Origin: an uncultured Candidatus Saccharibacteria bacterium
GTDB lineage: Bacteria > Patescibacteriota > Saccharimonadia > Saccharimonadales > JAGQNJ01
Reading direction: 5' to 3'
Length of the DNA: 64,000 nt
Assembly (NCBI GenBank): GCA_964584895.1
Contig: CAZPAW010000001.1
Span: forward strand, 109,343 to 173,342
Shown here: positions 353 to 26,510 of the stretch, one piece after another
Layout: the number at the start of each line of letters is the position of its first letter
Position numbering within the stretch: the first letter of the stretch is position 1
The notes under the pieces: model-generated
The model's input: the letters and a program-made list of their open reading frames with translations, nothing else
Databases searched by the model: none
What the model was told of the DNA's origin: nothing
Made by a program: the position numbers and the translations under genes

Positions 353-634
353 TTATTTTCTGCGTTTTTTAGATTTTTTAGGCTTTATTACTTTTCCAGA
401 GGTATTAATAATAATAACAGCTGATGTCAGCAAGCCTGCAGCAGCGATAATCAGACCAAAGAAAATCAATAATCCTGCTGCTACATTGGCGCCAACATAA
501 TTAGGATCGCCAATTGTATATTGATTCCAGATAAAACCGCTTACAGCCATGATTAAGCCGATTATTACTGCAATCAGCGATATTATTGTTCCGTTCTCTT
601 GATCATTTGTTATTTTTAATTTTGCCATAAGCAT
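353..634 (-). CDS. small two-helix membrane protein, unknown function
   Basis: 93-aa ORF with two hydrophobic helices and a C-terminal KPKKSKKRRK tail. Its stop abuts the start of the downstream DUF2177-like gene. Confidence 0.5.
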   Translation of the reverse strand: MLMAKLKITNDQENGTIISLIAVIIGLIMAVSGFIWNQYTIGDPNYVGANVAAGLLIFFGLIIAAAGLLTSAVIIINTSGKVIKPKKSKKRRK

Positions 635-703
635 ATTGTAGCAAATAAATATAAAACTGCAGATAAAATGCTAAAGTATATATAAATAATAGGTGAAAAT
701 AAG

Positions 704-2182
704 ATGAAGTCATCGGGTAAGCACATATTGAAGCAAGCCCCGTTAAAAAAAACGGTGCAGATAAAACGCGTCAAGATAAAAGAACCAGACCCTGAAATTT
801 CAATCCGGCACAAAGATAAACCCAAGCACATAAGAGTTATATCCGGGATAGCAGTTGGGTTATTAATCGGATTGGGGATTTTATTGATAGTCAGTCTGAA
901 GTATTCGTTTGTTTCAGTTAATTTAGCAGGTTATCCGATTAGTCAAAATCAAAACAAAGAAGAATTAAAAAATAAAATACAAGCAGAAGCCGAAAAGTAC
1001 AAAATATATATTAAGTCGCCAAAAGCAAAAAAAGCTTTTTCTTTAGAAAAAACGGGTGTATCTATAAATATTGATCGATCGATCGATAATGCCATAAATG
1101 CTAAGATGCCTAATAACTTATTCCGTAGATTAGCGTTTTGGTCATCTGTTAACGTCCCTCTAGACTTAACGGCAAATCAAAAAGAATTCGATAAATTTAT
1201 CAATAATAATCTAATCAAAACTATTAAAAAAACAAAAGATGCAAGCGTAAAAGTCGTCGATGGTGTTGCAGTCATTACTCCAGAGAAAAGTGGGCTAGCC
1301 TACACAGTCGACGATCCACGAGCCATGTTACTTGATCACATATCAAAGCTTAATCAGGGTTCAATAACCTTAATAAAATCAACAGTACCGGCCAAAGTGA
1401 CAAAAAACGAAGCTAAACAGGCCAAAGAAACTGTCGATAAGTTTTTAGCAAAAGATGTAAGTTTTGACATAGCAGGGACTAATATCAAAGCTTCGGCGAA
1501 CGATATTGGGAAATGGCTAGAGATATCGCCAATATCAAAAAATAAAACAATAGATGTGGTTATTAACAGCGGCAAAGTCCTCGAATATCTTGACGCTATA
1601 GCAGCCCCGTATGTATCGCCGCCCCAAAATGCCATCGTATTACCAAAAAGCTCGCGCGTATTAGTTGCGGGCCAAAATGGTGTCGACATTGTCAATAAAG
1701 AAGCGCTAGCAACAGAAATCGCAAAACAAATGTTGGTTAAAAATAAGATAAATCAAACTTTATCAGTCCAATATCAAACCTACAAAACGGTGACAGCAAC
1801 TCCTCACGATAAATGGATAGCTATCGATCTAACCTCAAAAGTTTTATATGTCTACGAAAAAACTAATCTAGTTGGCTCGTTCCCCATTAGTGCCGGCGCT
1901 CCACAGACCCCAACGGTTGAAGGTACATACAAAATTTATTCAAAAATCGCCTCCCAAGATATGGCCGGGCCTAATGCTGACGGTACTCGCTACTTCCAGC
2001 CAGCTGTGCCCTATGTTAATTATTTTTATGCAGATTACGCCATTCATGGCGTTTATTGGAGACCTGACAGCTACCTAGGAAATATTAATGCATCGCACGG
2101 ATGTGTTGGTATGAACGTCGGTAGTTCGGCCTGGATTTATAATTGGGCGCCGATTGGCACAACAGTAATAACCTTTAGTTAG
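704..2182 (+). CDS. membrane-anchored L,D-transpeptidase (YkuD domain)
   Basis: 492 aa with an N-terminal TM segment (VISGIAVGLLIGLGILLIVSL). The C-terminal catalytic domain carries the YkuD signature YAIHGVYW...NASHGCVGM. Confidence 0.8.
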   Translation: MKSSGKHILKQAPLKKTVQIKRVKIKEPDPEISIRHKDKPKHIRVISGIAVGLLIGLGILLIVSLKYSFVSVNLAGYPISQNQNKEELKNKIQAEAEKYKIYIKSPKAKKAFSLEKTGVSINIDRSIDNAINAKMPNNLFRRLAFWSSVNVPLDLTANQKEFDKFINNNLIKTIKKTKDASVKVVDGVAVITPEKSGLAYTVDDPRAMLLDHISKLNQGSITLIKSTVPAKVTKNEAKQAKETVDKFLAKDVSFDIAGTNIKASANDIGKWLEISPISKNKTIDVVINSGKVLEYLDAIAAPYVSPPQNAIVLPKSSRVLVAGQNGVDIVNKEALATEIAKQMLVKNKINQTLSVQYQTYKTVTATPHDKWIAIDLTSKVLYVYEKTNLVGSFPISAGAPQTPTVEGTYKIYSKIASQDMAGPNADGTRYFQPAVPYVNYFYADYAIHGVYWRPDSYLGNINASHGCVGMNVGSSAWIYNWAPIGTTVITFS

Positions 2183-3319: not shown

Positions 3320-3411
<92 letters not shown>

Positions 3412-3436: not shown

Positions 3437-4108
3437 TCAAATGGTTTGAGCAAAAACTAAAGCTTCGATATTTTTAAAACCAGATTTTTTTAAGGTTTTT
3501 GTAGCTTCTGTAAGCGTAGCACCGGTTGTCGTTACATCATCAATAAGTAAAAACGACTTCTCCGAATCTACGGCATTATTTGTGCTAAAAACACCTTTTA
3601 ACTGAGATAATCTTTGTTGACGCGATTTTCCTACCTGTTTTGAATTATCGCATCTTGATAGTAGCTCTCTATATTCTAGACCTCTAAGGCGGGCAAACTC
3701 TTGAGCTATCAACTTTGTGTGATTAAATCCCCTCTGCCGAACGTGAGAGGGCACTGTCGGGACAAAACTAACAATCACCCCATCATCATAGTATGGAGCA
3801 TTTTCATCCATGCATTGTGCAATAATCTTTGTCGCATCTCTAGCAGACGCTAACTTCATCTTATGGATTAACTTTTTTATATTTTTGTTGTAAGTGGTGG
3901 TTATAAAAACTCGGCTTAATGATGTTTTGTTTCGACATTTGCTACAAGTATCATGATTTTCTGTCGTAGTTTTACAGATAAAGCATCTGCTGGGAATAAT
4001 TTCTATTAATTCGTATCTACAACTTGCGCAAACCAACAACCCTTCTTCTCTACAAAACAAACAATCGTAAGGTGTTAAGACGCTAATTAGGTAATGTATT
4101 AGATTCAT
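3437..4108 (-). CDS. comF: ComF-family phosphoribosyltransferase-like protein
   Basis: 223 aa with N-terminal Cys-rich zinc-finger motifs (CLFC...CASC, CFIC...CSKC). The C-terminus has the PRTase motif LLIDDVTTTGATL. Confidence 0.75.
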   Translation of the reverse strand: MNLIHYLISVLTPYDCLFCREEGLLVCASCRYELIEIIPSRCFICKTTTENHDTCSKCRNKTSLSRVFITTTYNKNIKKLIHKMKLASARDATKIIAQCMDENAPYYDDGVIVSFVPTVPSHVRQRGFNHTKLIAQEFARLRGLEYRELLSRCDNSKQVGKSRQQRLSQLKGVFSTNNAVDSEKSFLLIDDVTTTGATLTEATKTLKKSGFKNIEALVFAQTI

Positions 4109-4236: not shown

Positions 4237-4725
4237 ATGGCTCGAAAAAGCCGGAACGATGAAGATTTATTAATAGAAGATGAGCTGACTGCAGCATTCT
4301 TAAGTGATGAGGACGTAGTAGAAGCTGCAAAAAACGACAGCCCAGAGTCTGCGTCGCCACAGCAAGCTGCTGGCGAAGAATGGGACGAAGAAGAAGCAGT
4401 GCCAGGTCAATTAGCTGTTGACGTATACGAAACTAAAGAAAAATTAGTAGTAAAAGCCAGAACGGCTGGCGTCAATAAAAGCGATTTAGATGTCAATATC
4501 TCTGATAATACACTCAGCATCAGAGGCACTCTGTCAGCAGGCAATGACGATGATGTTGTTAATTACTTTGTCCAGGAATGCTATTGGGGAGAGTTTTCTA
4601 GAAGCATCGCTTTGCCAGTACAAGTCAAAGAAGAAGGCGTAGAAGCCGTACTAAAGGACGGCGTACTAACAATCTCGTTCACAAAAGTTAAGCAAGATAC
4701 TGTTAAAAAAATACAGGTAATGTAG
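4237..4725 (+). CDS. hsp20: Hsp20/alpha-crystallin small heat-shock protein
   Basis: 162 aa with an acidic N-terminal region. The alpha-crystallin domain pattern is LAVDVYETKEKLVVKARTAGVNKSDLDVNISDNTLSIRG...FSRSIALPVQV...AVLKDGVLTISFTK. Confidence 0.85.
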   Translation: MARKSRNDEDLLIEDELTAAFLSDEDVVEAAKNDSPESASPQQAAGEEWDEEEAVPGQLAVDVYETKEKLVVKARTAGVNKSDLDVNISDNTLSIRGTLSAGNDDDVVNYFVQECYWGEFSRSIALPVQVKEEGVEAVLKDGVLTISFTKVKQDTVKKIQVM

Positions 4726-4867
4726 TCTTTTAGACACATTAGCGCTACAGTTGTAGTATTATCTACGCTCTCATAAACTAACAGATACAAGACAAAAACA
4801 GTGCTTGTTTTATATCAAATCAAAGGGCTACAATTATATAAAACAAACATGTTGTTCAAAAATTAAA

Positions 4868-4898
4868 CGACCCAATCTTAATGACTGGGTCGTTTTTT
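4868..4898. terminator. bidirectional rho-independent terminator between convergent hsp20 and the pilin-like operon
   Basis: Stem cgaccca (4868-4874) pairs with tgggtcg (4886-4892), followed by tttttt on the plus strand. The reverse strand has an A/T-rich tail (tttaattttt). Confidence 0.6.
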
Positions 4899-4916: not shown

Positions 4917-5336
4917 TTACAGATCCGTTGCTTTGGAAAGTACAAAGTTCACTATTATCTGAGCTAGCGCAACAATCACCAGACCGACGATTGCAAACAA
5001 TATCGTATTCTTAGCAGTTGTAACCTTACCGCTGTCACCACCAGATGTAATGTACTGAAAGCCACCAACAATAATCATAATCACGGCTGTTACACCAACG
5101 ACTATTGAGAATATGTTAATTACAGTTGCGATAATATCATTAACAGTTTCTTGGGCATCGGTCGGATCAACATCGCAACTACCATCGGTGACGTCTAGGT
5201 TACCGCCCTTACATAGGTTTGTTTGTATGTCAGCCTTGTCTTGTGCGTAAACGGGTATTGCTACTAATCCTGCGGGTGCGATCATTGCAACGAAGGCTGT
5301 AGTTGTTAGAATTATTCTTTTTATTAGTTTATTCAT
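4917..5336 (-). CDS. pilin-like T4SS protein, paralog 1 (TrbC/VirB2-like two-helix module)
   Basis: 139 aa with a signal peptide (...AIPVYAQ) and a short ectodomain with one Cys pair (CKGGNLDVTDGSC). It ends in the module VTAVIMIIVGGFQYITSGGDSGKVTTAKNTILFAIVGLVIVALAQIIVNFVL, which is shared with the next five ORFs. Confidence 0.65.
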   Translation of the reverse strand: MNKLIKRIILTTTAFVAMIAPAGLVAIPVYAQDKADIQTNLCKGGNLDVTDGSCDVDPTDAQETVNDIIATVINIFSIVVGVTAVIMIIVGGFQYITSGGDSGKVTTAKNTILFAIVGLVIVALAQIIVNFVLSKATDL

Positions 5337-5424
5337 TGTTGCGTTATTTCCTTATTATCTTGATATAAATTTATCATAAGCGTTGTAATACGGCAATAGT
5401 CTAGTTACTGTTTGTATAATTATA

Positions 5425-6015
5425 TTACGGCTCCTTTGTAAGAGCTGACGGAGTTTTATCGTTACCGGCACTATCAACCCTATTAATCACAAATATTACT
5501 ATCACCTGCGCCATTGCAACAACAACTAACCCAACGATCGCCCACAGGATTCCATTTCTTGCACTAGCTACAGCCGTAGTATCACCGTTAGATATTACAA
5601 ACTTAAAGCCGTTAACTATTATCATAATTACAGCTACTACACCGACCAAAATACTGAGCAAATTAATTACTAAGGCAACTACATCGGATACCGACGTCCC
5701 TTCATTAGTATCGCAACTAGACGTCCCACTAGCATCTACGCCCTTACAGACTGCATCAACTAAACTATCTGATGATGATTCGCCAGTTGCATCAGTGGCG
5801 TCATCCGAAGTAGGTTCTTCAGCGGCAGGGTCTTCAGTTGCAGGTTCTTCTTCGGTTGCAGGATCTTTAGTGGCAGGCGTTTCTGCAAAAGGATCTTCCG
5901 TCCTTGGAGAAGGAGAGGTAGTTCTCTGAGCAAACGCTACAGGCCCAAATAAAAACATACCGACAATTACAATAAGAAGTGTTGCTGATATTCGTTTTAG
6001 TGTTAGCATATGCAT
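5425..6015 (-). CDS. pilin-like T4SS protein, paralog 2, with acidic Pro/Glu/Thr-rich spacer
   Basis: 196 aa with a signal peptide (...PVAFAQ) and a ~70-aa PATEEEPATEDPAAEEP-type spacer. It has a Cys pair (CKGVDASGTSSC) and the conserved module VVAVIMIIVNGFKFVISNGDTTAVASARNGILWAIVGLVVVAMAQVIV. Confidence 0.65.
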   Translation of the reverse strand: MHMLTLKRISATLLIVIVGMFLFGPVAFAQRTTSPSPRTEDPFAETPATKDPATEEEPATEDPAAEEPTSDDATDATGESSSDSLVDAVCKGVDASGTSSCDTNEGTSVSDVVALVINLLSILVGVVAVIMIIVNGFKFVISNGDTTAVASARNGILWAIVGLVVVAMAQVIVIFVINRVDSAGNDKTPSALTKEP

Positions 6016-6030
6016 TTTAATAAAATTATA

Positions 6031-6411
6031 CTACAGCCTTCGTAATATAAAGAACACTATCGCTTGGGCTGATAATGCAACCACTATTCCGATAATTGCA
6101 TATAAAATTCCACTTTTGGCAGAGCTAACCGATTCAGCGTTACCGTTAGACATAACAAACTTAAATCCATTAATAATAATCATAATCACCGACGCGACTC
6201 CAACCACCCAACTCATAATAATAGTTATCCGGGTTATTATGCCGGTTGGTCCAAAGATTGGATTGTCGTCATTAGCCTGACAAACAGGCGAGGATGGCTC
6301 TAGCGCACATGGCTTTTCTAGCGGATCTTCTGCATAGGCCAATTCTGGTAATATCGCCAAAGAAGGGACGAATATCAGTAGGGCAACTAAAATTGTTTTC
6401 AGATATCTCAT
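6031..6411 (-). CDS. pilin-like T4SS protein, paralog 3
   Basis: 126 aa with a signal peptide (...ELAYAE) and a Cys pair (CALEPSSPVC). The conserved module is VASVIMIIINGFKFVMSNGNAESVSSAKSGILYAIIGIVVALSAQAIVFFIL. Confidence 0.65.
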   Translation of the reverse strand: MRYLKTILVALLIFVPSLAILPELAYAEDPLEKPCALEPSSPVCQANDDNPIFGPTGIITRITIIMSWVVGVASVIMIIINGFKFVMSNGNAESVSSAKSGILYAIIGIVVALSAQAIVFFILRRL

Positions 6412-6414
6412 AAC

Positions 6415-6732
6415 CTAAAAGGCCCTCCGTAGCACAAAATTCACAATTGCCCCTGCCGACACTGCGACCACCAAACCAATCACCGCATACAATATTGTAT
6501 TCTTAGCTTTGGCAGTCTTTGCTGGGTCGCCGCTAGATAATATGTACTGAAAACCTGCTATCACTATGATTAGTACCGAAATGGCTCCAAGCGTTCCGAA
6601 TACCACGGTTAAAACATTCGCGATAGTCGTAGAGAGACTCGCTTCAGTAATATCCTTATTAGGCAGCTCAACACCTGGATCGTTTATCAATTGAGCAAAT
6701 CTTGATATCCCAAAATATATATAGTTCATCAT
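6415..6732 (-). CDS. pilin-like T4SS protein, paralog 4 (no signal peptide)
   Basis: 105 aa with no N-terminal hydrophobic leader and no Cys. The conserved module is ISVLIIVIAGFQYILSSGDPAKTAKAKNTILYAVIGLVVAVSAGAIVNFVL. Its ATG overlaps the stop of paralog 5 (ATGA). Confidence 0.6.
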   Translation of the reverse strand: MMNYIYFGISRFAQLINDPGVELPNKDITEASLSTTIANVLTVVFGTLGAISVLIIVIAGFQYILSSGDPAKTAKAKNTILYAVIGLVVAVSAGAIVNFVLRRAF

Positions 6733-7124
6733 GTTGATATTGTCGTCCCTATAAATCTAACAACCGCGCTAGCAAGCACCGCAATCACCAGTCCAATTAC
6801 AGCGTTTAAGATAGCGTCTTTAGCGATCTTTGTGTTTTCGGGTTCTCCCTGGCTCAAAACATACCTAAAACCACCATATATTATGTATACAATCGCAAAT
6901 AAACCCGCTAGAAATAACAGTATCTCTGTTACTGCTAGCCCTATGCCTAGTAGCGAATCCATTTTATTTTGGGCAAACTCACCAATCAAGGCACACTCAC
7001 CAGTCGGGAACTCTTGACCATCGAGGTATTTATACCAAGTAGGAATCCCAAATACACTTTGTTGGGGCGTACAAGGATCGCCGCTAGCAGCGAATCTCAA
7101 CATTAATTCAGCGATATGAATCAT
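6729..7124 (-). CDS. pilin-like T4SS protein, paralog 5 (no signal peptide)
   Basis: 131 aa with no leader and a Cys pair (C18...C54). The conserved module is LFAIVYIIYGGFRYVLSQGEPENTKIAKDAILNAVIGLVIAVLASAVVRFI. ATGA overlaps occur at both ends. Confidence 0.6.
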   Translation of the reverse strand: MIHIAELMLRFAASGDPCTPQQSVFGIPTWYKYLDGQEFPTGECALIGEFAQNKMDSLLGIGLAVTEILLFLAGLFAIVYIIYGGFRYVLSQGEPENTKIAKDAILNAVIGLVIAVLASAVVRFIGTTIST

Positions 7125-7750
7125 GAATTAAATATACCCCCTGGAATCAACCACTGCAAAATACCGAATAAGAAAAACCAAGTCACAAGGGCAATCACCG
7201 CATTAATAATTCGTTTTTTGGCTTGAGCAGCGACCTGAGGATTCCCACCAGATGTCGTATATTGTATTCCGGCCATAATAATAACAATCACAACGATTAC
7301 ACCTATCGCTGCGCTCAACAAATTCGCGATGTCCTTAAGTAACTTCGTTATCGGATTATCATTAACGCATGCATCACCAGTACATTCAAATCGCCCCGTC
7401 GTTGTTGCAGAACCAGATGCAGCAGGAGGAGCCTGATTGGCCGCTCGATTGTCTACCGCCACAGCCTGCCATCGAGTACATTCAGGACTATCCAGAGGCT
7501 TTTCTATTAGGATACCGTTTCTTGCCATATAGCATTGATCTTGAAACAAAGAACCACCCCTAACTGGATTCCTATTAGGAAAAAAGAAAGCTGCGGCTGT
7601 AGCAAAAAAATCGTCACATTGTTCGAGAGTAATAACGTCTCCGTCTTTTTTAAAACATTTTGCGGCTTCAGCAGACACAACTCCACTAAAAGAAAAAATC
7701 GAAATGCTAAATAGTGTAGATAAAATCATCGATAATATAAATTTTTTCAT
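7121..7750 (-). CDS. pilin-like T4SS protein, paralog 6, large six-Cys ectodomain
   Basis: 209 aa with a signal peptide (...GVVSAEA) and a ~120-aa ectodomain containing six Cys. The conserved module is VIVVIVIIMAGIQYTTSGGNPQVAAQAKKRIINAVIALVTWFFLFGIL. Confidence 0.6.
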   Translation of the reverse strand: MKKFILSMILSTLFSISIFSFSGVVSAEAAKCFKKDGDVITLEQCDDFFATAAAFFFPNRNPVRGGSLFQDQCYMARNGILIEKPLDSPECTRWQAVAVDNRAANQAPPAASGSATTTGRFECTGDACVNDNPITKLLKDIANLLSAAIGVIVVIVIIMAGIQYTTSGGNPQVAAQAKKRIINAVIALVTWFFLFGILQWLIPGGIFNS

Positions 7751-8334
7751 TCTACCCCCGTCAGAACAAAATCAAATATTGACAATTGACCACTCTCTGT
7801 ACTTTCTAAACGAAATTCTATGGTAACCGTATACTTATTGTCTTTTGATTTACATTCAAAGGATAATAATATGCGGTTATTTTTATCAACTACACCAGAT
7901 TTCGAAGCAACCGGTTGGCAAGATGATAAATTGAGTTTATTAAACAAAATCATACTTTCGCCGACAAAATCCTCCCTACTAATCCCAGCATTAGGGCTAA
8001 ATAATTCGTAAGCTCCATTCGTGTCGTTAATCCCAGCTTTTTCCATAAAAGCAATCACAGCATTTTTTGCATTTGTGGTATCTACATTACTGTTTGCAGT
8101 ATTACTGCTGTTGCTTGATTTTTTTACATTTTTGTTGGCACCCAGCACCATACCAAAGATCAAAACCCCGATTGTCATAATTACCAAAACAATTATCACG
8201 ATAATCTTTTTATCTAGTGATTTTTTTGAAGGCTCTTGCGACGGATCGTTGACATTACGAATAAAATCTAGATCCGAGTTTGTAATTTGTGGTTTTTGAT
8301 TTTGGGGATTCATGTTTTTGTAATTTTGTAACAA
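7747..8334 (-). CDS. membrane-anchored protein of unknown function, first gene of the pilin-like operon
   Basis: 195 aa with a single TM (IIVIIVLVIMTIGVLIFGMVLG), an Asn/Ser-rich linker and a ~110-aa C-terminal domain. Its stop overlaps the start of paralog 6. The ORF-track start is non-ATG; the ATG at 8313 is an alternative start. Confidence 0.5.
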   Translation of the reverse strand: MLQNYKNMNPQNQKPQITNSDLDFIRNVNDPSQEPSKKSLDKKIIVIIVLVIMTIGVLIFGMVLGANKNVKKSSNSSNTANSNVDTTNAKNAVIAFMEKAGINDTNGAYELFSPNAGISREDFVGESMILFNKLNLSSCQPVASKSGVVDKNNRILLSFECKSKDNKYTVTIEFRLESTESGQLSIFDFVLTGVE

Positions 8335-8379: not shown

Positions 8380-9492
8380 ATGATGTCGTTCAAAATAAAC
8401 TCATCTCATTATAAACAGTCAAGAATTTTTATAGTTTTCTGTACTTTTCTGTTTACTCTAATAATGCCAATCGCTAGCGTAGTGTTTCTTACGACTCAAA
8501 ACGTATCAGCACGCGATGCTGAACCCGACGATCCACAAAAAGCCGGTTTAATCGTTCATTTAGTACCGGACGATCCTGATGCAACATTAAGAATCGATCG
8601 TCTGGATGAGCTTGATGGTGTTGAGAGCAGATACGAACTGTCTAGGCATGAAGATCATTACGAAGTAACCGACATAGATATCAAAGGTTGGTGCGAAACC
8701 GGCGGAAACGATATATTCACTCAAGAATTTGCAAAGTTTACTCTCGCAATAACTACAAGTAGAGGTGACGAAATAACAAAAACTGTCGACCTGACCAACA
8801 ACTGTGGTGGAGTAGACGAATTTGATGTCAATATAGAAGACGAGATTGAAAACAAGGTTAAATTAACGTTCGTGCTGTCTTTTTTAGATCCAGAAAATAA
8901 TCTCCAAAAAACACCCTTCCCAAAAACTGATTCCGAGGCCGAACTCGTAAGAGTCTCGGTAACTCCAGAAGGAGGCGGTGACCCAATTATTTTTACACCT
9001 ACTAACGTAACTTCTAACGCAAGAGAATATATGAAACGAATAGATCCGGGTAGATACACCTACGAGCTTTTATATAATTCTAGAATAGATTGTCGTGGAA
9101 GAACCAATATTGTCTTTCTTGATACTGGCGAGCTCAACATGACAACAAATAAACGAGTAGTTCGTACTGTGGGGCCAGCTGATTTTTCTATAGAAGCTTG
9201 CGGAGATGGCTTAGTTTTAACGCCACCAGAGCCGGGACCCGAGGGGCCACAGACGTGTGACGAAAACTTTAAATTTACAGGTGGGTTCTTGGTATGTATC
9301 ATCCTCGGAATAATTGATACTACTGTAGACAATATGGTTGATGCTATAGCTGATATGTTGAGTGTTGGTAGGGCAGAGATTAATGATGATGGGTTGAAGA
9401 CTGCTTGGTCTTACTTTAGGAATATAGCTAGTGTATTGCTTGTGGTTATCGGACTAGTTATGATAATAGGACAAGCAGTAAGTAAGGAATAG
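8380..9492 (+). CDS. T4SS-locus surface protein, paralog A (variable ectodomain, conserved C-terminal membrane module)
   Basis: 370 aa with an N-terminal TM/signal (IFIVFCTFLFTLIMPIASVVFL) and a ~270-aa ectodomain of unrecognised family. The C-terminus reads TCDENFKFTGGFLVCIILGIIDTTVDNMVDAIADMLSVGRAEINDDGLKTAWSYFRNIASVLLVVIGLVMIIGQAVSKE. The last 56 codons are nucleotide-identical to those of 9615..10394. Confidence 0.55.
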   Translation: MMSFKINSSHYKQSRIFIVFCTFLFTLIMPIASVVFLTTQNVSARDAEPDDPQKAGLIVHLVPDDPDATLRIDRLDELDGVESRYELSRHEDHYEVTDIDIKGWCETGGNDIFTQEFAKFTLAITTSRGDEITKTVDLTNNCGGVDEFDVNIEDEIENKVKLTFVLSFLDPENNLQKTPFPKTDSEAELVRVSVTPEGGGDPIIFTPTNVTSNAREYMKRIDPGRYTYELLYNSRIDCRGRTNIVFLDTGELNMTTNKRVVRTVGPADFSIEACGDGLVLTPPEPGPEGPQTCDENFKFTGGFLVCIILGIIDTTVDNMVDAIADMLSVGRAEINDDGLKTAWSYFRNIASVLLVVIGLVMIIGQAVSKE

Positions 9493-9614: not shown

Positions 9615-10394
9615 ATGAAGCTAATGCTTAAATACGAATCTTTGAAACGTTTAATAACTACTTTGCTTTTTGTTGCTCTAATTATTTTCTCCTGTACTCA
9701 ACCTATTTTTGCGCAACAATCTACCATTGACGTTGCGAATAGTGCAAGTTTTCAATTTGTCGTACGAGATGCTACCGAACAAGATATTACAGAAATGAAT
9801 GTAAGAAACATTGCTGGTGTTAATGAAGGAGATGAAATACTTGTAATTGAAATGAAAATTGACGGCAACCTATTTCATACTTTCTACACTAATCCCGTCC
9901 TTGGATCCATAGGTTACATAGGTCTTGGAGCAGATTCTTTTGCAAAGATTACTGATGAGAATTTTGATGATAGGGCTTTCACGTTCACTGCAGCTGGAGG
10001 CGAAACAACAGAGATAGAAGTCACTAATGTAAATCGAGCTAGAGAATTCTTTGGAGATCCTGCTAACGGCGGGGACGATAATAGGCGTGTACCTGGAAAT
10101 GACAATCCGATTCCAGCAGACGACGACAATGCCGACGACGAAGAAAGTGAGCAAACATGTGAAGAAAACTTCGACTTCACAGGCGCCTGGATTGTCTGTA
10201 TGGCTCTAGGCATCATAGATCAGACTGTAGACAATATGGTTGATGCTATAGCTGATATGTTGAGTGTTGGTAGGGCAGAGATTAATGATGATGGGTTGAA
10301 GACTGCTTGGTCTTACTTTAGGAATATAGCTAGTGTATTGCTTGTGGTTATCGGACTAGTTATGATAATAGGACAAGCAGTAAGTAAGGAATAG
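9615..10394 (+). CDS. T4SS-locus surface protein, paralog B (different ectodomain, same C-terminal membrane module)
   Basis: 259 aa with a signal/TM (LITTLLFVALIIFSCTQPIFAQQ), an unrelated ~150-aa ectodomain and an acidic D/N-rich linker. This is followed by TCEENFDFTGAWIVCMALGIIDQTVDNMV... and the same C-terminus as paralog A. Confidence 0.55.
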   Translation: MKLMLKYESLKRLITTLLFVALIIFSCTQPIFAQQSTIDVANSASFQFVVRDATEQDITEMNVRNIAGVNEGDEILVIEMKIDGNLFHTFYTNPVLGSIGYIGLGADSFAKITDENFDDRAFTFTAAGGETTEIEVTNVNRAREFFGDPANGGDDNRRVPGNDNPIPADDDNADDEESEQTCEENFDFTGAWIVCMALGIIDQTVDNMVDAIADMLSVGRAEINDDGLKTAWSYFRNIASVLLVVIGLVMIIGQAVSKE

Positions 10395-10415
10395 TGGATG
10401 TTTGATGCATATACA
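10224..10415 (+). repeat. 192-bp perfect direct repeat, copy 2
   Basis: Identical to 9322-9513. It spans the 3' end of 9615..10394 and the first 18 nt of 10398..12200. Confidence 0.95.
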
Positions 10416-12200
10416 GTAAAGAAGGTGCTTCCCAGACTAGCTATTGCTGTGATTCTGATTCAACTCTCGTGGTTTTTGACCACTGGGGCGATCTTTTTAA
10501 CCAATAAAATCGCTTTTGGTATAGGGGGGTTGATGTATGGCGCATTTGGCGGTACCGAACAATTTGCTTTAGAAGAACTATTATCGAATACATCTGACTC
10601 TAGCATCACAACTATCGGGACTACGGTATTATTTACAGTTGTTGGCACGGCTTTTGGTGGAGGCGTAATCGCCATCGCTGGCTTTATCATCATCGCCGTT
10701 TTAGTCGCTTTTTTAAGTTTGGCGCTACGCCGAGCAATACTAATTATGTTGATACTACTGGCACCAATCGCAATTGTCGCCTGGATATTACCAAACACTG
10801 AGCGCTTCTGGAAAATGTGGTGGGACAACTTTACCAAATTGTTAATAATGTTCCCGATGATTATGGCGATGATTGCTGCAGGGCGCATATTTGCACTAAT
10901 CGGTGGCTCTACGGGTGCTGGAGACATTGTTAAGGTCACAATCGTATTAGCAGGATTTTTCATCCCACTATTACTAATACCAAAAACATTTTCGCTTGCC
11001 GGTAGCGCCTTCGCTGCCATTGGTGGGGCGGTCGCCCAACGTGGTGCCGGAGCCCAAAACTGGGCACAAGGTATGGGCAAAAACCGCCAAAAACAAAAAT
11101 GGGCTGAACGAGGCAAAAACTTCACATCTGGAAATATGAAAGAACGAACGGCCATAGGTCGTAGGGTAAACAGGATTGGTGCAGGCTTGGGAGTAGGCGC
11201 ATCCAATAGGTTTGGTCTTGGCAAAAGAGGTAGAGAAGCTGTTAAGATTAAAAAGCAAGTTGCGGAAGGCGAAGCAGCTAAGAACCCAGAATTACAAACT
11301 ATGATGTTGAATAATGATGATGCGACTGCTTTACTAGGTTTAAGTGGAGGTACAAGCGAAGGGATGAGACAAGCACAAGATGAACTTAGAAATCACTGGT
11401 ACGAACAACAACGGGCCAAGGGTATGTCCCACGCTGATGCCCTAGCGGATGCCGACAGAAGGGTCTCCCAAGCTACGGCCGCCGCTCGTGCTGTAGGTGT
11501 AACAAAAACTAACGCAGCAGCAGCCTTCAATGGTCTTGCGCAAAATAAGGCTCGTTCCCTCGGCGCCGGAGCCAACGGTTTAGTTGCAGCTGGCGCTAGT
11601 AGACTAGCCGACGGTAATGACAGTAAGGCCGCTGAGGCGTTGGGAGCCTTTCAATATCATGCAAGGGGTGCTGGTCGCTTTGATCTGGGCGCTGGGACAG
11701 CAACCGAAGGTGGCGAAAAAGCATCCTTGTATCAACTCGCTAACGCCCAACCATCTACAATACAAGGAATGGGTGAAGAAATTATTGATCGAATGGCGAC
11801 AGGAGACCCCGCCGCCCTAGATCAAGCTGCCGTTTTTAGACAAGAGCTAGATGCCATGATTCCCAACGCTACAGGAGCTACTCGTGATGCACTGATTGCC
11901 CAAAGAGATGCATTAGATGCCCACGGAGCGCCCACAGGTGGTGGTCCTGGAATCCTTCAAACGTACATGCAGACTGCTACTGGAAGAATCGACCCAACAA
12001 CAAGATTACCGGTAACTGTAACATTTGATGAAAAGTATAATTCAGCAAGAGCAGCAGCAGATCCAGCATACGCAGCTACATGGTCAGACCCTATAGACAG
12101 AGCAAGAGGCGTCAGACGAGTTACTAGGGCCGAGACGTGGGCTGATGTTGCTCATGCAAAAGCAAGAACATATAGAGCGCCGGAAGAAGAAAATCGTTAA
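10398..12200 (+). CDS. polytopic membrane protein, TrbL/VirB6-like, with long Ala/Gly/Arg-rich soluble tail
   Basis: 600 aa. The first ~210 aa contain five to six hydrophobic helices, and the remaining ~390 aa are soluble and Ala/Gly/Arg/Gln-rich. Its topology and its position between pilin-like genes and VirB3/VirB4-like genes fit VirB6. No diagnostic motif was seen. Confidence 0.5.
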   Translation: MFDAYTVKKVLPRLAIAVILIQLSWFLTTGAIFLTNKIAFGIGGLMYGAFGGTEQFALEELLSNTSDSSITTIGTTVLFTVVGTAFGGGVIAIAGFIIIAVLVAFLSLALRRAILIMLILLAPIAIVAWILPNTERFWKMWWDNFTKLLIMFPMIMAMIAAGRIFALIGGSTGAGDIVKVTIVLAGFFIPLLLIPKTFSLAGSAFAAIGGAVAQRGAGAQNWAQGMGKNRQKQKWAERGKNFTSGNMKERTAIGRRVNRIGAGLGVGASNRFGLGKRGREAVKIKKQVAEGEAAKNPELQTMMLNNDDATALLGLSGGTSEGMRQAQDELRNHWYEQQRAKGMSHADALADADRRVSQATAAARAVGVTKTNAAAAFNGLAQNKARSLGAGANGLVAAGASRLADGNDSKAAEALGAFQYHARGAGRFDLGAGTATEGGEKASLYQLANAQPSTIQGMGEEIIDRMATGDPAALDQAAVFRQELDAMIPNATGATRDALIAQRDALDAHGAPTGGGPGILQTYMQTATGRIDPTTRLPVTVTFDEKYNSARAAADPAYAATWSDPIDRARGVRRVTRAETWADVAHAKARTYRAPEEENR

Positions 12201-13754: not shown

Positions 13755-14660
13755 ATGTCAGAGTATAAAGTAATTCAGGATATCGAGGCCGAAGACAAAC
13801 TTCTAGGTCCACTTACTCTGCGTCAATTCATATATGCGTCGATTGTTGTAGCAATCGGAGCGATTGGTTTCTTTTTTATAAGTAACGACGTCTGGTTTCT
13901 TGCTATCCCACTTATTCCGCCATTCATATTTTTTGGTCTTCTTGCCGCACCATTTGGACGCGACCAATCATCAGAGATCTGGCTACTGGGAAAAGTGCGG
14001 TATATGATTTTTTCTAAAAAGCGTATTTGGGATCAAGAGGGAATCGAACACCTGGTAACAATCACGGTGCCAAAAAAAGTTGAAAAACATTATTCTGATG
14101 GGTTAAGTGGGTCAGAAGTAAAAAGTCGACTAAAAACGCTTGCAAATACCATGGATACACGTGGCTGGATAGTAAAAAATGTAACGCCTGGAAATAGGAG
14201 TTTTGTAAATCAAGATAATCCAGATAGACTACTTGAAATCCAAAAAACTCCAGAAGACGAAGCATTAGCAACAATCAAACCAGCTTCTGACGTACTAAAT
14301 ACATCTGTCGTCAACCCAATTGCTGCAAATTTGTCTAGTATGGTCGACGAAGCCGAACTGCAACATCGACAAGAATTATTGGCGAATATGCGCGATATTG
14401 CCGACCAATACAACAACGCCCCAGCAAAACCTCCAGCAAAAATCACGACAGCCAGACCTAGTCCAATCATCACGCCAACTGCAAAGTTGCCTAAAAACAC
14501 GCCAATTACTCAACCAAAACCAGCAATGACACCACCCCCCAATCCTGTTATAATTGACGGTGTTAATAAGCGTAAGCTTTCTTCAGAGATTGATATAAAA
14601 CAAAAATCCGAAGAAAGTGACGGTAATAGCAATGAGGAAGTTGTCATATCTCTTCATTAG
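13755..14660 (+). CDS. PrgI/VirB3-like T4SS membrane protein with Pro-rich C-terminal extension
   Basis: 301 aa. The N-terminus reads IQDIEAEDKLLGPLTLRQFIYASIVVAIGAIGFFF... followed by a second helix; an LTxRQ motif plus a two-helix hairpin is typical of PrgI-family VirB3 analogues. It lies just upstream of VirB4. The C-terminal part is Pro/Thr/Lys-rich. Confidence 0.6.
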   Translation: MSEYKVIQDIEAEDKLLGPLTLRQFIYASIVVAIGAIGFFFISNDVWFLAIPLIPPFIFFGLLAAPFGRDQSSEIWLLGKVRYMIFSKKRIWDQEGIEHLVTITVPKKVEKHYSDGLSGSEVKSRLKTLANTMDTRGWIVKNVTPGNRSFVNQDNPDRLLEIQKTPEDEALATIKPASDVLNTSVVNPIAANLSSMVDEAELQHRQELLANMRDIADQYNNAPAKPPAKITTARPSPIITPTAKLPKNTPITQPKPAMTPPPNPVIIDGVNKRKLSSEIDIKQKSEESDGNSNEEVVISLH

Positions 14661-14803
14661 TAACACCGTAATCGCCTATTGGTGGGCCCGCTAATGAATC
14701 CTGAAAAAACTCAATATTATTTACACACTAGACAAAATACTATCAACAGTATTGATCGTTGCGCGCCTTACCACAGTCAAAAAATAAAAGAGATTACCGC
14801 GGG

Positions 14804-15688
14804 ATGAACCCTAACTCAAATCAACAACCAACCCAGCAACAACCGCCACAACCGGCTCCACAACCACAGGCCGTTACGGTACCGCCTGCTCAAAATAATC
14901 AACCGCAACCACCACAACAGCAGCAACAATCAACCCAACAGCCGACTAAACCAAAAATTAACCCCGCTAGCACTCAAAACATGCTTCAGATTGCAGAGAT
15001 CAGGGACGGCATTGTCATCATGAATGATGGTTCATTTAGGTGCGTAGTTATGGCAAAAAGTATCAACTTTGATCTGATGAGCCCACAAGAGCAAGAAGCA
15101 GTCGAGGCTGGTTATCAAGCATTTCTAAACTCGCTATATTTTGATATTCAGATTTTTATTCGATCACAAAAAGTTGATATTAGACCTTATTTGGATAAAC
15201 TGGCGAAAACTAGAAGCGAAGAAGACAACATGTTGCTGGGATTGCTAATGGATGATTATATTGATTTTATAACTGACTTATCCACAGAATCAAACATCAT
15301 GGATAAATATTTTTATATTGTCATACCCTTCTTTTCTAATGTATCTGTTAAACGAGCAATTACCCAAAGTAAAACTTTCTTTACAGGTTTGTCAGGAATA
15401 TTTAACAGATCAAAAGAGCCTCATGTAACCGTTACAGAACAAGTATTGGCCGAGGCAAAGGACGAACTCCGCAACAGAGTGCAGGCTGTTGTTGGAGGAT
15501 TAGAGCAGTGTGGCGTTAAAGGTGTGCCGTTGGATACCCAAGAATTAATCGAACTGTACTATGACTTTTATAATCCTGATACCGCAACTAGACAGCAATT
15601 ACATAATTTTGACGATGTGTCTGCGCCGGTAATAACAAAAGGTCAAGGTCAGGCCCCAAAACCTAGCATAGATCAGGGGGTAATGTAG
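14804..15688 (+). CDS. Gln/Pro-rich protein with VirB4-N-terminal-like domain
   Basis: The ATG at 14804 is preferred over the ORF-track TTG at 14759. A ~70-aa Q/P-rich region precedes LQIAEIRDGIVIMNDGSFRCVVMAKSINFDLMSPQEQEAVEAGYQAFLNSLYFDIQIFIRSQKVD. This resembles my recollection of the start of Gram-positive VirB4/TrsE-type proteins. The stop lies 1 nt before the VirB4 ATG. Confidence 0.45.
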   Translation: MNPNSNQQPTQQQPPQPAPQPQAVTVPPAQNNQPQPPQQQQQSTQQPTKPKINPASTQNMLQIAEIRDGIVIMNDGSFRCVVMAKSINFDLMSPQEQEAVEAGYQAFLNSLYFDIQIFIRSQKVDIRPYLDKLAKTRSEEDNMLLGLLMDDYIDFITDLSTESNIMDKYFYIVIPFFSNVSVKRAITQSKTFFTGLSGIFNRSKEPHVTVTEQVLAEAKDELRNRVQAVVGGLEQCGVKGVPLDTQELIELYYDFYNPDTATRQQLHNFDDVSAPVITKGQGQAPKPSIDQGVM

Positions 15689-15689
15689 T

Positions 15690-17618
15690 ATGGGACTTTT
15701 TGGTGGCAAAAAGGCCATCACTGATCCAAAAGAACTCGCTGAAGCCCAACGTCGACGCGAAGAACAAGAGGTTAGTGAAATATATCGCAAGGGTGTCACA
15801 GCATTGCGAGACTTCATTGCACCAAGCTCGATCGAACTCAGCAGTACTCACTTTCAGATTGGAAGTCGATTTGCCCGCACCTATTATGTTTTTGGATATC
15901 CACGCTCACTAACTACCGGCTGGACAAGTGGGCTGATTAACCTCGACGAGATAATTGATATTTCTATGTTTATCTATCCAGTAGAGAGCCGAATCGTACT
16001 AGAAAGTCTTCGAAAAAAAGTATCTCAAATGGAGGCAGGTATCCAAATCGATGAAGAAAAAGGTCGGGTACGTGATCCAGGCAAGCAGGCATCGATTATT
16101 GATGCTGAAGAAATCCGTGACAAGCTCCAAGTCGGCGAAGAAAGATTCTTTAGAATCGGTTTTTATTTTACTCTGTACGCAAACAGCTTGGACGAGCTAG
16201 AATATGTCGCCCATAAAGTTGAGTCAATGCTCGGGCAACAACTTGTCTATTCAAAACCAGCAACCTCACAGCAAGAACAGGCATTGGCTAGCACTGTTCC
16301 GCAGTTTACTGACCAACTAGAGATTAGGCGCAATATGAGCACGGGCGCCGCAAGCACTAGCTTTCCGTTTACTAGCGCCGACCTTAGCCAAGACGATGGC
16401 GTGTTGTATGGGATCAATATGCATAATTCTGGATTAGTAATTTTTGACAGATTTAGTTTAGAAAATGGCAATGCTGTTGTCTTTGCAAAATCGGGTGCAG
16501 GTAAATCTTTTGCTGTTAAGCTCGAGGCGCTTCGTTCAATGATGCTTGGCACCGAGATAGTCATCGTTGATCCAGAAAACGAATACCAGAGAATGTGCGA
16601 GGCGGTTGCTGGAGCATATGTAAGGCTAAGCCTTAACTCTAACACCAGAATCAATCCATTTGATCTACCAAAAGTAATCGATACTGACGAAGCCGATAAT
16701 GCACTAAGGAGTAATCTGATAACTCTACATGGCTTGCTACGATTGATGATGGGTGGTGCTCAGGCTCAAATGCTTGCTTCTCAGGCTAGCGGCGGAGTGT
16801 CTACTCCTGCCTTGTCTCCGGTCGAGGAAGCAGATCTTGATTCTGCGTTGATAGAAACATACGCTAAAGCCGGCATAACCCAAGACCCTCTTACTCACAA
16901 TTCGATCCCTCCGACTATCACAGACCTATATGACACCCTACTTCACATGGGCGGCACAGGACCACAACTAGCTCAACGACTGCGAAAATATACAAGCGGT
17001 ACCTTTGCCGGAATATTCTCTCAACAATCTAATATCGAGATGAAGAATCAAATGGTGGTATTTAATGTCCGTGATCTAGAGGATGAGTTGCGTCCAGTAG
17101 CTATGTATATTGTCCTTAATCACATATGGAATATTACAAAATCAGACAAAAAGAAAAGAATCTTAATCATTGATGAAGCTTGGCAAATCATGCGTTATGA
17201 AGATTCGGCTAACTTTATGTTTTCTTTAGCCAAGCGCGCCCGAAAGTATAACCTAGGTATCACCACAATTAGCCAAGACGTAGAAGATTTTATTGGGTCA
17301 AGGCTTGGTCGAGCAATCGTTGCCAACGCCTCATTACAGTTACTGCTAAAGCAATCGCCATCTGCTGTTGATATGTTAACCGATGTCTTTAAGCTAACAG
17401 AAAATGAATCAAAACGATTAAGCCAGTTCCCGATTGGTCAAGGGTTATTTTTTGCCGGCCAAAATCACGTACATATACAAGTTACAGCTAGCGACACAGA
17501 AACCAGTCTAATAACTACCAACCCAGAGCAAATCGAAGAGTTAGAACAAAAAGGCGTAATTAAAGAAGGACAGGGCAATATTAATTTGGGGCCCATAACA
17601 ACCCCGCCTGCTATATAA
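15690..17618 (+). CDS. virB4: VirB4/TrsE-family type IV secretion ATPase
   Basis: 642 aa with Walker A VVFAKSGAGKSFAV and Walker B KRILIIDEAWQIM. Downstream pattern: ARKYNLGITTISQDVEDF...LLLKQSP. Confidence 0.85.
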   Translation: MGLFGGKKAITDPKELAEAQRRREEQEVSEIYRKGVTALRDFIAPSSIELSSTHFQIGSRFARTYYVFGYPRSLTTGWTSGLINLDEIIDISMFIYPVESRIVLESLRKKVSQMEAGIQIDEEKGRVRDPGKQASIIDAEEIRDKLQVGEERFFRIGFYFTLYANSLDELEYVAHKVESMLGQQLVYSKPATSQQEQALASTVPQFTDQLEIRRNMSTGAASTSFPFTSADLSQDDGVLYGINMHNSGLVIFDRFSLENGNAVVFAKSGAGKSFAVKLEALRSMMLGTEIVIVDPENEYQRMCEAVAGAYVRLSLNSNTRINPFDLPKVIDTDEADNALRSNLITLHGLLRLMMGGAQAQMLASQASGGVSTPALSPVEEADLDSALIETYAKAGITQDPLTHNSIPPTITDLYDTLLHMGGTGPQLAQRLRKYTSGTFAGIFSQQSNIEMKNQMVVFNVRDLEDELRPVAMYIVLNHIWNITKSDKKKRILIIDEAWQIMRYEDSANFMFSLAKRARKYNLGITTISQDVEDFIGSRLGRAIVANASLQLLLKQSPSAVDMLTDVFKLTENESKRLSQFPIGQGLFFAGQNHVHIQVTASDTETSLITTNPEQIEELEQKGVIKEGQGNINLGPITTPPAI

Positions 17619-22349: not shown

Positions 22350-23678
22350 ATGAATAAAAAGAAAGTTGTCATAATTGCATCTATATCACTAATTATTATC
22401 TATTTGATAATAATTATCGTTACTTTTTTAATTAGAAATAATAAACCCGAGGACAGCAATAAGTTGATGGTCAGTGATATTGTTGCAACTAATATTGCTA
22501 ATACCGACAATTTTTCTTCGCTAGATACAAATGATTTAGGTTTCTTCACTGGATCTTCGAGTGCAACCTTAAATCTAGCGCAGAATAATAATTTTTTGAA
22601 AACCAAATTACTTACCGCTGACTTCCCCTTGTATAACGTAGATAAGGTGTCCGGTATAGATGACAAGTTATTAGTTAGATCGTACTACTATCCACCTAAT
22701 TCTAACTTATTAAACAAATACATAAGTGGCGGTAAGCCAACGGCTCATAAAAAACAAGCATGGTTTATCCTCACCAAAAAGAATCTTAAATCTGCATTCT
22801 CACCAGAATACATAAATGTAGTTGACGCGACACTAACTCCGGATGGAATTGCGTTTTTAGAGTCTTCTGGCAATAAAATTAATCTAGTTCTTAAAGATAA
22901 TACAGGCGTATATCGTTCGATCGGCAACGATATATCTGCCAAAAAAATTATTGGTGTCCTAGGCACAAAAATATATTTATCTGACTATAGTGGATCGATT
23001 TATGAACAAAACGGATCTACATACAAAAAAATAATCAGCAACGCAACTGATGTCACCTTAGATCATGATACTAGCAAGTTAGTGTATTCGGACATAAACG
23101 ATTCAAGTTCTGGTGAAGAAGGAGGTTTTGTTGAAAACAACAAACAAGGTGCCTCTAGTCATAAAATTAATATCCTTGATTTAACTACAAATTCGAACAC
23201 AATTTATGAGCCCCCGCAAGGATATTCTCATACTGATAGAGGGAATATCGTGACAATAAATAAAATCACTCAGCCAGATAAAATCGAAATTTATAATCTT
23301 GGCACTGGCGAGACATTATCGGTTAACATTGATCAAGCAGCATCAAAAATTGTCGACCCCATATCAAAGGTAGTTGTGGCCTCGAAAAACCCTCTAATAT
23401 TATCTGCAATTACCAATAATAATCGATTAGTTATCTATTCCGATAAAGCTATCGTTGAAAACATCGCAAGCTATAAATTACCGAAAATACCTGTCAGACA
23501 AGGTCAATACTCCTTCGATTATAGTATTGTTCAAGGTACTGTAGTGATGGTTGCGGATAAAAGTAATACCAATATCATAGCTAATACTAGTAAAATTTTA
23601 AAAAATACCTGCGAATGTGATTTAAATCAACTGAACAAAGTTTGGACAGTTATTCAAAGAACAGAGGGATCACTTTAG
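22350..23678 (+). CDS. TM-anchored extracytoplasmic protein, possible beta-propeller (TolB/PD40-like repeats), last gene of the T4SS-like operon
   Basis: 442 aa with an N-terminal TM (VVIIASISLIIIYLIIIIVTFLI). Weak recurring segments (TPDGIAFLESSGNKINLVLKD, SKLVYSDINDSS) are present. The 3' end overlaps recF by 9 bp (convergent). Confidence 0.35.
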   Translation: MNKKKVVIIASISLIIIYLIIIIVTFLIRNNKPEDSNKLMVSDIVATNIANTDNFSSLDTNDLGFFTGSSSATLNLAQNNNFLKTKLLTADFPLYNVDKVSGIDDKLLVRSYYYPPNSNLLNKYISGGKPTAHKKQAWFILTKKNLKSAFSPEYINVVDATLTPDGIAFLESSGNKINLVLKDNTGVYRSIGNDISAKKIIGVLGTKIYLSDYSGSIYEQNGSTYKKIISNATDVTLDHDTSKLVYSDINDSSSGEEGGFVENNKQGASSHKINILDLTTNSNTIYEPPQGYSHTDRGNIVTINKITQPDKIEIYNLGTGETLSVNIDQAASKIVDPISKVVVASKNPLILSAITNNNRLVIYSDKAIVENIASYKLPKIPVRQGQYSFDYSIVQGTVVMVADKSNTNIIANTSKILKNTCECDLNQLNKVWTVIQRTEGSL

Positions 23679-24731: not shown

Positions 24732-24768
24732 AAATTAGCTCAAAGCTTAGAGCCCTCAGCTGAGAGCT
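24732..24768. repeat. imperfect 37-bp direct repeat, copy 1 (flanks the four-helix-bundle gene)
   Basis: Read on the minus strand, AGCTCTCAGCTGAGGGCTCTAAGCTTTGAGCTAATTT matches AGCTCAGAGCCGAGGGCTAATAGCTGAAAGCTAATCG (25131-25167) at 26 of 37 positions without gaps. Confidence 0.5.
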
Positions 24769-25105: not shown

Positions 25106-25130
25106 ATACTATATTTTAACAGCCTGTTTG

Positions 25131-25167: not shown

Positions 25168-25168
25168 C

Positions 25169-26496: not shown

Positions 26497-26510
26497 CCAA
26501 AAAAGTATAA

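Follow-up and report, generated by a model that had tools for sequence, protein, structure and literature searches.

Saccharibacteria carry a type IV secretion system (T4SS) whose role was called "completely unknown" in a 2024 perspective. Here, we analyzed a tandem array of six pilin-like genes adjacent to such a system in an uncultured Candidatus Saccharibacteria bacterium (contig CAZPAW010000001.1 of assembly GCA_964584895.1, positions 109,343 to 173,342; this whole stretch of 64,000 nucleotides is termed the window below). The closest described array is that of Ca. Southlakia epibionticum ML1, in which six VirB2-like pilins were found essential (Wang et al., Cell 2023, PMC10633639; review PMC12857230). 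In the transposon sequencing (Tn-seq) table of that paper, the genes SEML1_0014-0019 measure 399, 558, 312, 381, 384 and 417 bp, all belong to PF18895, and have Hsp20, a 675-bp gene and tRNA-Ser next in line (PMC10633639). Each of the six genes was scored as growth-defective and then as essential, and an unlinked seventh pilin as non-essential (PMC10633639). In the sole Saccharibacterium tested genetically, neither the T4SS nor its pilin array is dispensable for epibiotic life.

A broader survey of Patescibacteria listed 441 arrays with 2-11 pilin genes each (Quinonero-Coronel et al., Microb Genom 2025, PMC12102498). These arrays are found near virB4 and close to dnaA, are abundant in Saccharimonadia, come without a relaxase, and show a mean within-array identity of ~25% with a maximum of 54%; the divergence was proposed to be an adaptation to different host strains. 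The window fits all these traits, and its array is another instance of a known system, hence its novelty is low. Positional orthology, leaderless members, fusions and an internal promoter are not mentioned in the portions of that paper used here; the positional orthology, the full-length conservation of four of the six copies, the conserved leaderless pair with Sec leaders in a part of the position-2 homologs, the fusions and the promoter-like block ahead of position 6 are new in the present comparison.

The array and the closest described systems

The six genes were numbered in the direction of transcription, with 7121-7750 as position 1 and 4917-5336 as position 6. Scores refer to the curated Pfam family PF18895 (T4SS_pilin).

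7121..7750, minus strand, position 1 pilin, 209 amino acids (aa), 44.9 bits
6729..7124, minus strand, position 2 pilin, 131 aa, 46.1 bits
6415..6732, minus strand, position 3 pilin, 105 aa, 55.3 bits
6031..6411, minus strand, position 4 pilin, 126 aa, 35.1 bits
5425..6015, minus strand, position 5 pilin, 196 aa, 36.9 bits
4917..5336, minus strand, position 6 pilin, 139 aa, 49.4 bits

Coordinates and lengths agreed exactly with the six consecutive minus-strand open reading frames (ORFs) of 139, 196, 126, 105, 131 and 209 aa listed in an earlier, sequence-only reading of this DNA. All six proteins exceeded the gathering threshold of PF18895 (26.6 bits) with 35-55 bits, and the stored PF18895 matches of identical Logan proteins concurred with our own Pfam scan. 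Using PF04956 (TrbC/VirB2, cut-off 27.9 bits), position 3 scored 31.3 and position 6 27.1 bits, with 12.9-22.4 bits or no match for the remaining four copies. For NCBIfam NF045849 (cut-off 40 bits) 47.1 bits were obtained for position 3 and 22.5-36.2 bits for the other five. The pilin identity proposed earlier was borne out by PF18895 in all six copies, by PF04956 in one copy, and by PrgI/VirB3-like and VirB4-like genes nearby. The array encodes VirB2-like paralogs of the Pfam family T4SS_pilin, belonging to a chromosomal, origin-proximal monoderm-type T4SS.

The proteins share a C-terminal two-helix module with pairwise identities of 35-59% and shuffle z scores of 10-29. This module had been recognized before, with a length of 55-60 aa; by hidden Markov model (HMM) and Pfam it spans ~73 aa (70-75 aa). 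The module HMM retrieved from all ORFs of the 64-kb window exactly the six array ORFs, each with an E-value of ~1e-30. For the N-terminal parts of the paralogs, z stayed below 3 in 13 of 15 pairs; the highest value (5.4) came from a 49-residue alignment spanning both signal peptides. All six copies carry the same loop and helix signatures. The motifs described earlier were roughly right, with the loop now reading [GNA]G[FI][QKR][YF]xxSxG[DNE] and with AK replaced by AR in one copy. Recounting gave 6, 2, 0, 2, 2 and 2 Cys for positions 1-6, as reported before. The inter-helix loop of every copy bears 1-3 K/R, and the N-tails are net acidic.

As in Southlakia, six tandem PF18895 genes are located between a divergent T4SS operon and Hsp20 near the origin; the Southlakia operon encodes VirB6-like, PrgI, VirB4 and hydrolase proteins, and its locus lies near the chromosome start. 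By size, positions 3, 4 and 6 correspond to the Southlakia genes for 103, 126 and 138 aa, and the one 4-nt overlap of that array is found ahead of the 103-aa gene. Southlakia is, however, a different species, with first two genes of 132 and 185 aa compared to 209 and 131 aa in the window; order or type of these two genes may differ. Furthermore, the 195-aa upstream gene of the window has no counterpart in the published Southlakia table. We are aware of the fact that the putative window-to-SEML1 gene equivalence rests on synteny, sizes and module offsets.

The VirB2/TrbC/TraA pilins of diderm bacteria (PF04956) resemble the array proteins in their two-helix hairpin, the short K/R loop, gene location beside VirB3/VirB4, a leader (Sec-like by heuristic in four of the six window copies) and weak to moderate PF04956 matches. 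In those systems one gene usually encodes a homopolymer pilus with a VirB5 tip, whereas the monoderm system of the window has no VirB5 but six paralogs, two of them leaderless, as well as large N-terminal extensions. Position 3 is also similar to Mbov_0395 and ICE_MMCAP2_0565 (NF045849) of Mycoplasma integrative conjugative elements, which are leaderless ~80-aa two-helix modules of a monoderm T4SS. These are, however, encoded as single copies in the conjugation systems of mobile elements, and the other five window copies stay below the NF045849 cut-off. Tandem amplification of VirB2-type genes in host-associated bacteria is further known from Bartonella and Anaplasma (cited in PMC12102498). 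There, the copies are read as antigenic or host-range variants, in contrast to the window, where four of six are conserved between species and all are positional orthologs.

Positional orthologs, leaderless members and fusions

Besides the window and its near-identical strain L001, whole arrays were obtained from four other genomes, namely L006 and L007 (both Logan), L008 (ENA) and L009 (GCA_964510945.1); L010 is the same genome as L008, and L011 the same contig as L009. All compared genomes contained six genes in the same order, with sizes of 208-239, 126-131, 104-105, 126-132, 151-204 and 139-144 aa. The best cross-genome match of a module was found at the same array position in 30 of 30 cases. 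Module identity averaged 0.82 (minimum 0.58) for the same position versus 0.37 (maximum 0.63) for different positions, and clustering yielded six purely positional groups, indicating that the paralogs are older than these lineages and did not undergo concerted evolution. The longest DNA tract common to copies measured 86 nt at 66-72% identity, and none was recombination-grade.

Between the genomes synonymous sites were saturated. Despite this saturation, the N-parts of positions 2, 3, 4 and 6 kept clear motifs, and strong variation was confined to the Cys-rich head of position 1 and the low-complexity spacer of position 5. The earlier description of the N-terminal domains as unalignable consequently applies to paralogs and fails for orthologs. 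As dS was saturated or undefined in every pair, dN/dS was unusable for positive selection; omega was < 0.5 wherever computable.

Scanning the genome collection with a 469-aa T4SS protein revealed no relative, and the six-module alignment was too divergent as a locus-search query. A locus search with the position-6 ortholog alignment found only two Saccharibacteria metagenome-assembled genomes (MAGs; L010, L011) and one distant contig. Pilin-like module loci were also observed in L012, labeled Candidatus Methylomirabilis, at 461-1726 (minus), 9941-11767 (plus) and 11847-12167 (plus). In L012 the module is placed N-terminally on large exported proteins (415 and 589 aa), the reverse of the window architecture.

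Positions 1, 4, 5 and 6 start with Sec-type leaders, identified heuristically: residues 1-8 include 2-3 K/R, the core is strongly hydrophobic, and an AxA-type site is present. In position 1 the leader is followed by a variable N-domain with six Cys (aa ~28-132), the conserved junction ATGRFECTGDACVxDNPITK, the two-helix module and the subfamily-specific C-terminus QWLIPGG. This N-domain is an orphan with 3 matches among 1.84 billion representative proteins; the N-part showed ~20% identity in L008 and L009, and the module 75-93% among orthologs. One further protein, P0122, looks like a mosaic of the signal peptide of an L006-type position 1 (L006 874-1500) and a mature domain nearly identical to that of window 7121-7750, which hints at recombination within position 1.

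In position 4 the leader goes together with a single Cys pair, and the motif NPIFGPTGIITRIT is conserved; mean identities among orthologs were 0.71 for the module and 0.43 for the N-part. Position 5 consists of leader, long acidic P/T/E-rich low-complexity spacer, Cys pair, module and polar C-tail, with a net charge of -15 ahead of the first helix. Its orthologs range from 151 to 204 aa with a mean N-part identity of 0.28. The acidic spacer had been noticed before, and its P/T/E-rich sequence with tandem repeats was found again: short imperfect repeats at 5812-5867 (18 nt x 2.1, 15 nt x 2.6) encode a PATE-type spacer. Slippage of these repeats could explain the length differences of the orthologs; the difference between 194 aa (L001) and 196 aa (window) was due to the start-codon call and not to an indel. 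Position 6 carries, in addition to its leader, the conserved motif NLCKGxNLDVTDGxC and a nearly invariant module, 96-100% identical over five genomes (dN 0.015-0.027, dS saturated). It was always the final gene ahead of Hsp20.

Positions 2 and 3 had been described as leaderless, and their N-terminal features and upstream stops were in line with this. In 6415-6732 and 6729-7124 neither N-terminal K/R plus hydrophobic core nor an AxA-type site was present, solely a stub of 12-15 aa, and upstream extension is impossible because of a stop codon 1 and 8 codons before the ATG. Both positions were leaderless in every relative compared. Position 3 is Cys-free with a short acidic N-tail and is the nearest of the six to the family consensus. 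Position 2 shows the stub MIHIAELMLRFAASG followed by an N-domain with the motif C..FGIPTWYKYL..C; its module is ~91% identical between genomes. AlphaFold2 modelled position 2 as an extended hairpin that bears a small beta-hairpin head, at a mean predicted local distance difference test score (pLDDT) of 87.7, with helices at 55-90 and 95-130 (pLDDT > 90).

The position-2 subfamily comprised 331 homologs whose alignment included the N-domain, and C18, P28, W30, Y33 and C44 were invariant in 85 aligned sequences. Among the best 120 homolog clusters, 67 were leaderless with a stub of 12-15 residues and an FAA-like end, 44 carried a canonical Sec leader with the AxA site right before the first Cys, and 6 were fusion proteins. 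The 44 clusters with a Sec leader before the invariant Cys pair indicate that the position-2 N-domain is extracytoplasmic, with the stub as an apparent remnant of a leader. We dropped the idea that the "FAA[AG]C" stub of some position-2 homologs marks a lipoprotein, since the Cys stands 3-4 residues further on in the window's clade; moreover, leader-bearing homologs place this Cys after the AxA site, paired with the second invariant Cys.

The fusions join position 2 to position 3.

P0171, P0172, P0180, P0208, P0220, P0236: position-2/position-3 fusions, four-helix proteins of ~209-219 aa
L013 6001-6645 and L014 6001-6660: fusion-gene loci

Their N-half resembled position 2 with 40-52% identity over ~110-127 residues, and the best match of the C-half was position 3 with 47-53%. 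At least two lineages exist, mutually just 36-42% identical. Fusion-bearing arrays otherwise kept the gene order, ending with a position-6 ortholog and then Hsp20. A structure model of the fusion predicted two consecutive hairpins (pLDDT 75). The fusions indicate that the N-tail of position 3 can sit on the outer face without a leader and, by a Rosetta-stone argument, suggest that positions 2 and 3 may be neighbours in an assembly.

Three further elements accompany the array.

7747..8334, minus strand, first operon gene, bitopic membrane protein of 188-195 aa without family match
5366..5398, minus strand, conserved non-coding block TATTGCCGTATTACAACGCTTATGATAAATTTA, 33 nt in the 88-nt gap upstream of position 6
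4865..4895, minus strand, terminator-like hairpin with 13-bp stem and T-run, just 3' of position 6

The ATGA overlaps at 6729-6732, 7121-7124 and 7747-7750 noted earlier were verified base by base; they chain the 195-aa gene with positions 1, 2 and 3, and the 1/2 and 2/3 overlaps were conserved in L006-L009. Thereafter the genes are separated by 3 nt (3/4), 15 nt (4/5) and 88 nt (5/6). Alignment of five genomes revealed that the block in the last gap is almost unchanged despite the saturation of synonymous sites. Its sequence can be parsed into a -35 element (TTGCCG) separated by 17 nt from a -10 element (TAAATT) with TGn extension, and an AAGGAA ribosome-binding site lies downstream. Judged by its conservation and consensus resemblance, we infer an internal promoter for position 6. 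Besides the hairpin at 4865..4895, no strong terminator-like site was seen along the operon's minus strand; the yield of the consensus promoter/terminator scan was no richer than that of shuffled sequence.

Homologs of 7747..8334 with 185-193 aa occupied the same place in L006-L009. Its topology comprises a short cytoplasmic N-terminus, one transmembrane helix and an outer domain of ~130 aa, and the product may thereby resemble VirB8-type proteins. Transcriptomics of TM7x showed expression of the T4SS locus and of neighbouring "putative effector" genes. A match to a non-pilin family and a lack of expression had been named by the sequence-only reading as outcomes counting against it; no non-pilin family was matched above threshold, and the T4SS locus is expressed in TM7x.

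Possible assembly of the six subunits

We consider it slightly better than an even chance (probability roughly 0.55) that the six are non-redundant subunits of a single heteromeric assembly on the T4SS, which could be a pilus or else a short conduit across the envelope. This reading is favoured because of the positional orthologs, the conserved ATGA coupling, the 2/3 fusions and the six essential Southlakia genes. A heteromeric surface fibre was also the better-fitting of the two readings put forward earlier, with co-assembly as the step that we infer. Each subunit would be inserted as a hairpin of two membrane helices, its N- and C-terminal ends facing outward and the loop with its K/R facing inward. 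Positions 1, 4, 5 and 6 would use their Sec leaders; positions 2 and 3 would have lost theirs and presumably insert with the N-tail out, the first helix serving as a reverse signal anchor. Translational coupling would fix the proportions of positions 1, 2 and 3, which would make up a minor complex at the tip or in initiation. Position 1 would turn its orphan Cys-rich head, the fast-evolving part, towards the host, position 5 would supply a variable acidic spacer, and position 6, nearly invariant and with its own promoter-like element, would be the abundant major subunit. If a monoderm T4SS does build a pilus, the rule that Gram-positive-type systems lack pili falls.

Several observations weigh against such an assembly. 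VirB2-type pili are homopolymers with a VirB5 tip, and to our knowledge a six-component fibre is without precedent. Co-assembly was observed neither in this analysis nor in the literature, and cryo-electron tomography of N. lyticus TM7x assigns no filament to the T4SS. The more distant relative L014 has four modules, hence six are not obligatory. Foldseek against the PDB retrieved generic helical hairpins (best E = 0.27), which is uninformative for a simple hairpin, and a solved VirB2 or TraA pilin was absent among the 50 matches listed; a PDB sequence-profile search yielded no relative, a chance match only. The consensus promoter scan did not list 5366-5398. With respect to the Tn-seq data, the Southlakia pilin genes are small, with 11-16 insertion sites per gene (PMC10633639), and polarity onto position 6 could inflate the essentiality of upstream genes. 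For the last Southlakia pilin gene, itself essential, polarity is no explanation.

More tentatively, and with the odds rather against it, the structure may be an ordered appendage, in which the translationally coupled positions 1-2-3, with 2 and 3 fused in some lineages, form a tip or initiator with a fast-evolving host-recognition head and a separately transcribed, nearly invariant position 6 forms the shaft. Initiation complexes of minor pilins or pseudopilins, known from type IV pili and type II secretion, are built from divergent paralogs with one shared membrane/polymerisation module. They are encoded in one operon, their members are individually required, and a conserved major subunit is found alongside. 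Fold and machinery of these complexes are unrelated to those of the window array and the analogy is functional only; if true, the ordered appendage would be a convergent counterpart, and a possible physical conduit by which Saccharibacteria exploit their hosts. The window presents no new kind of system, and the comparative pattern yields specific testable assignments: position 6 as probable shaft, positions 1-3 as probable unit, the position-1 head and position-5 spacer as host-facing and variable, and the site of a possible internal promoter.

Among the alternatives, the one that fares best, though we regard it as unlikely at about one chance in five, holds that one pilin polymerises, namely position 6 and perhaps one more, and that the others are inner-membrane platform parts, chaperones or regulators, so that no heteromeric fibre exists. 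Position 6 is indeed distinct in its conservation and its own promoter-like block, leaders are missing from positions 2 and 3, TM7x has so far revealed no T4SS filament, and a pilus is normally absent from monoderm T4SSs. However, module, loop and helix signatures are the same in all six, homology places the position-2 N-domain, with its invariant Cys pair, outside the cytoplasm, and the large exported domain of position 1 makes little sense in a purely membrane-embedded part.

Less probable still is a repertoire of interchangeable copies, each building a fibre alone or providing an alternative tip, for a wider host range or evasion. Such a proposal exists for the VirB2 paralogs of Bartonella/Anaplasma and for Patescibacteria, whose array size varies from 2 to 11 genes (PMC12102498). 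The unrelated N-parts of the paralogs agree with it, as do the position-1 orphan N-domain swapped between relatives, the position-5 lengths of 151-204 aa, and the hint of recombination from the P0122 leader/mature-domain mosaic. Strict positional orthology (30/30 modules) argues against it, as do N-parts conserved in four of six genes despite saturated synonymous divergence, inter-copy DNA tracts of at most 86 nt at 66-72% identity, the completeness of every copy with three of them translationally coupled, and the essential scores of all six genes in Southlakia (PMC10633639). Interchangeable tips or antigenic diversification, the second proposal of the sequence-only reading, is accordingly disfavoured for four of the six genes, where N-parts are conserved and recombination-grade repeats are missing; it stays plausible in two places, the head of position 1 and the spacer of position 5.

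Delivery of the proteins to the host as secreted or membrane-inserting effectors, i.e., as Sec-exported small hydrophobic proteins, appears improbable to us. Four of six carry Sec leaders, the TM7x array was earlier labeled as "Sec secreted" or "putative effector" genes, and neighbouring genes termed putative effectors in the TM7x literature are expressed during host encounter. Nevertheless, the Pfam pilin matches are above cut-off, two hydrophobic helices would lead to retention in the producer's membrane, and host-facing effectors would not be expected to be as nearly invariant as position 6. Finally, that the proteins are unrelated to secretion, being holin-like, bacteriocin-immunity or generic two-helix proteins merely resembling pilins, is hardly tenable: the fold search returned generic hairpins only and weak sub-threshold Pfam matches to unrelated membrane families occurred, but no holin or bacteriocin-immunity family gave a significant match at threshold for any of the six proteins in Pfam or NCBIfam, synteny with the T4SS was kept in every relative examined, and the Southlakia pilin genes are essential together with the T4SS genes (PMC10633639).

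Neighbouring T4SS operon and genomic setting

The T4SS genes are organized in a divergent operon, with the PrgI and VirB4 genes 6-8 kb from the array.

13755..14660, plus strand, PrgI/VirB3-like component, PF12666 39.8 bits versus a cut-off of 27
15690..17618, plus strand, VirB4-like ATPase, PF19044 96.4 bits, PF12846 48.9 bits
17670..22337, plus strand, two cell-wall hydrolase genes, 988 aa (VanY) and 565 aa (amidase_2 + GDSL)
4237-4725, Hsp20, 3' neighbour of the array
3437-4108, ComF, 3' neighbour of the array
3320-3411, tRNA-Ser, 3' neighbour of the array

The VirB4-like protein was 78-95% identical to > 100 proteins, the named ones of which came from Saccharibacteria/Saccharimonadales, some called VirB4 or TraC; the pilin matches and two named MAG contigs likewise belonged to Saccharibacteria. 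Synteny of T4SS and array was kept in L008, L009, L013 and L014. The two hydrolases would fill a VirB1-type role, and their paired arrangement recurs in L008, L009 and SEML1_0006/0007. For 10398-12200 (plus) and 14759-15688 (plus), the L008/L009 orthologs have stored TrbL_3 (VirB6-like) and TraC-like Pfam matches, which were not reproduced by hmmscan of the 600-aa and 309-aa window copies (E <= 0.5). In the ORFs scanned, a subset of the small ones included, no VirD4-type coupling protein and no relaxase domain were found. The first two genes of the T4SS operon, 8380-9492 (plus) and 9615-10394 (plus), encode proteins of 370 and 259 aa without family match. The 370-aa protein terminates in the hydrophobic stretch LLVVIGLVMIIGQAVSKE, and comparing the C-terminal ends of both proteins with the pilin-module HMM gave insignificant E-values of 0.6-1.5.

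Directly adjoining the T4SS operon, recF, dnaN, dnaA and yidC are located at 23670-29748, which makes the locus origin-proximal, as known for secretion loci of other Patescibacteria (PMC12102498). A large surface-polysaccharide biosynthesis cluster was observed at ~30200-62900. It encodes several GT2/GT4 glycosyltransferases, a DegT aminotransferase, a pyruvyl transferase, a UDP-glucose dehydrogenase and a phosphoglucomutase, as well as a Bac_transf priming transferase and a 663-aa DUF7657/DUF7654 protein.

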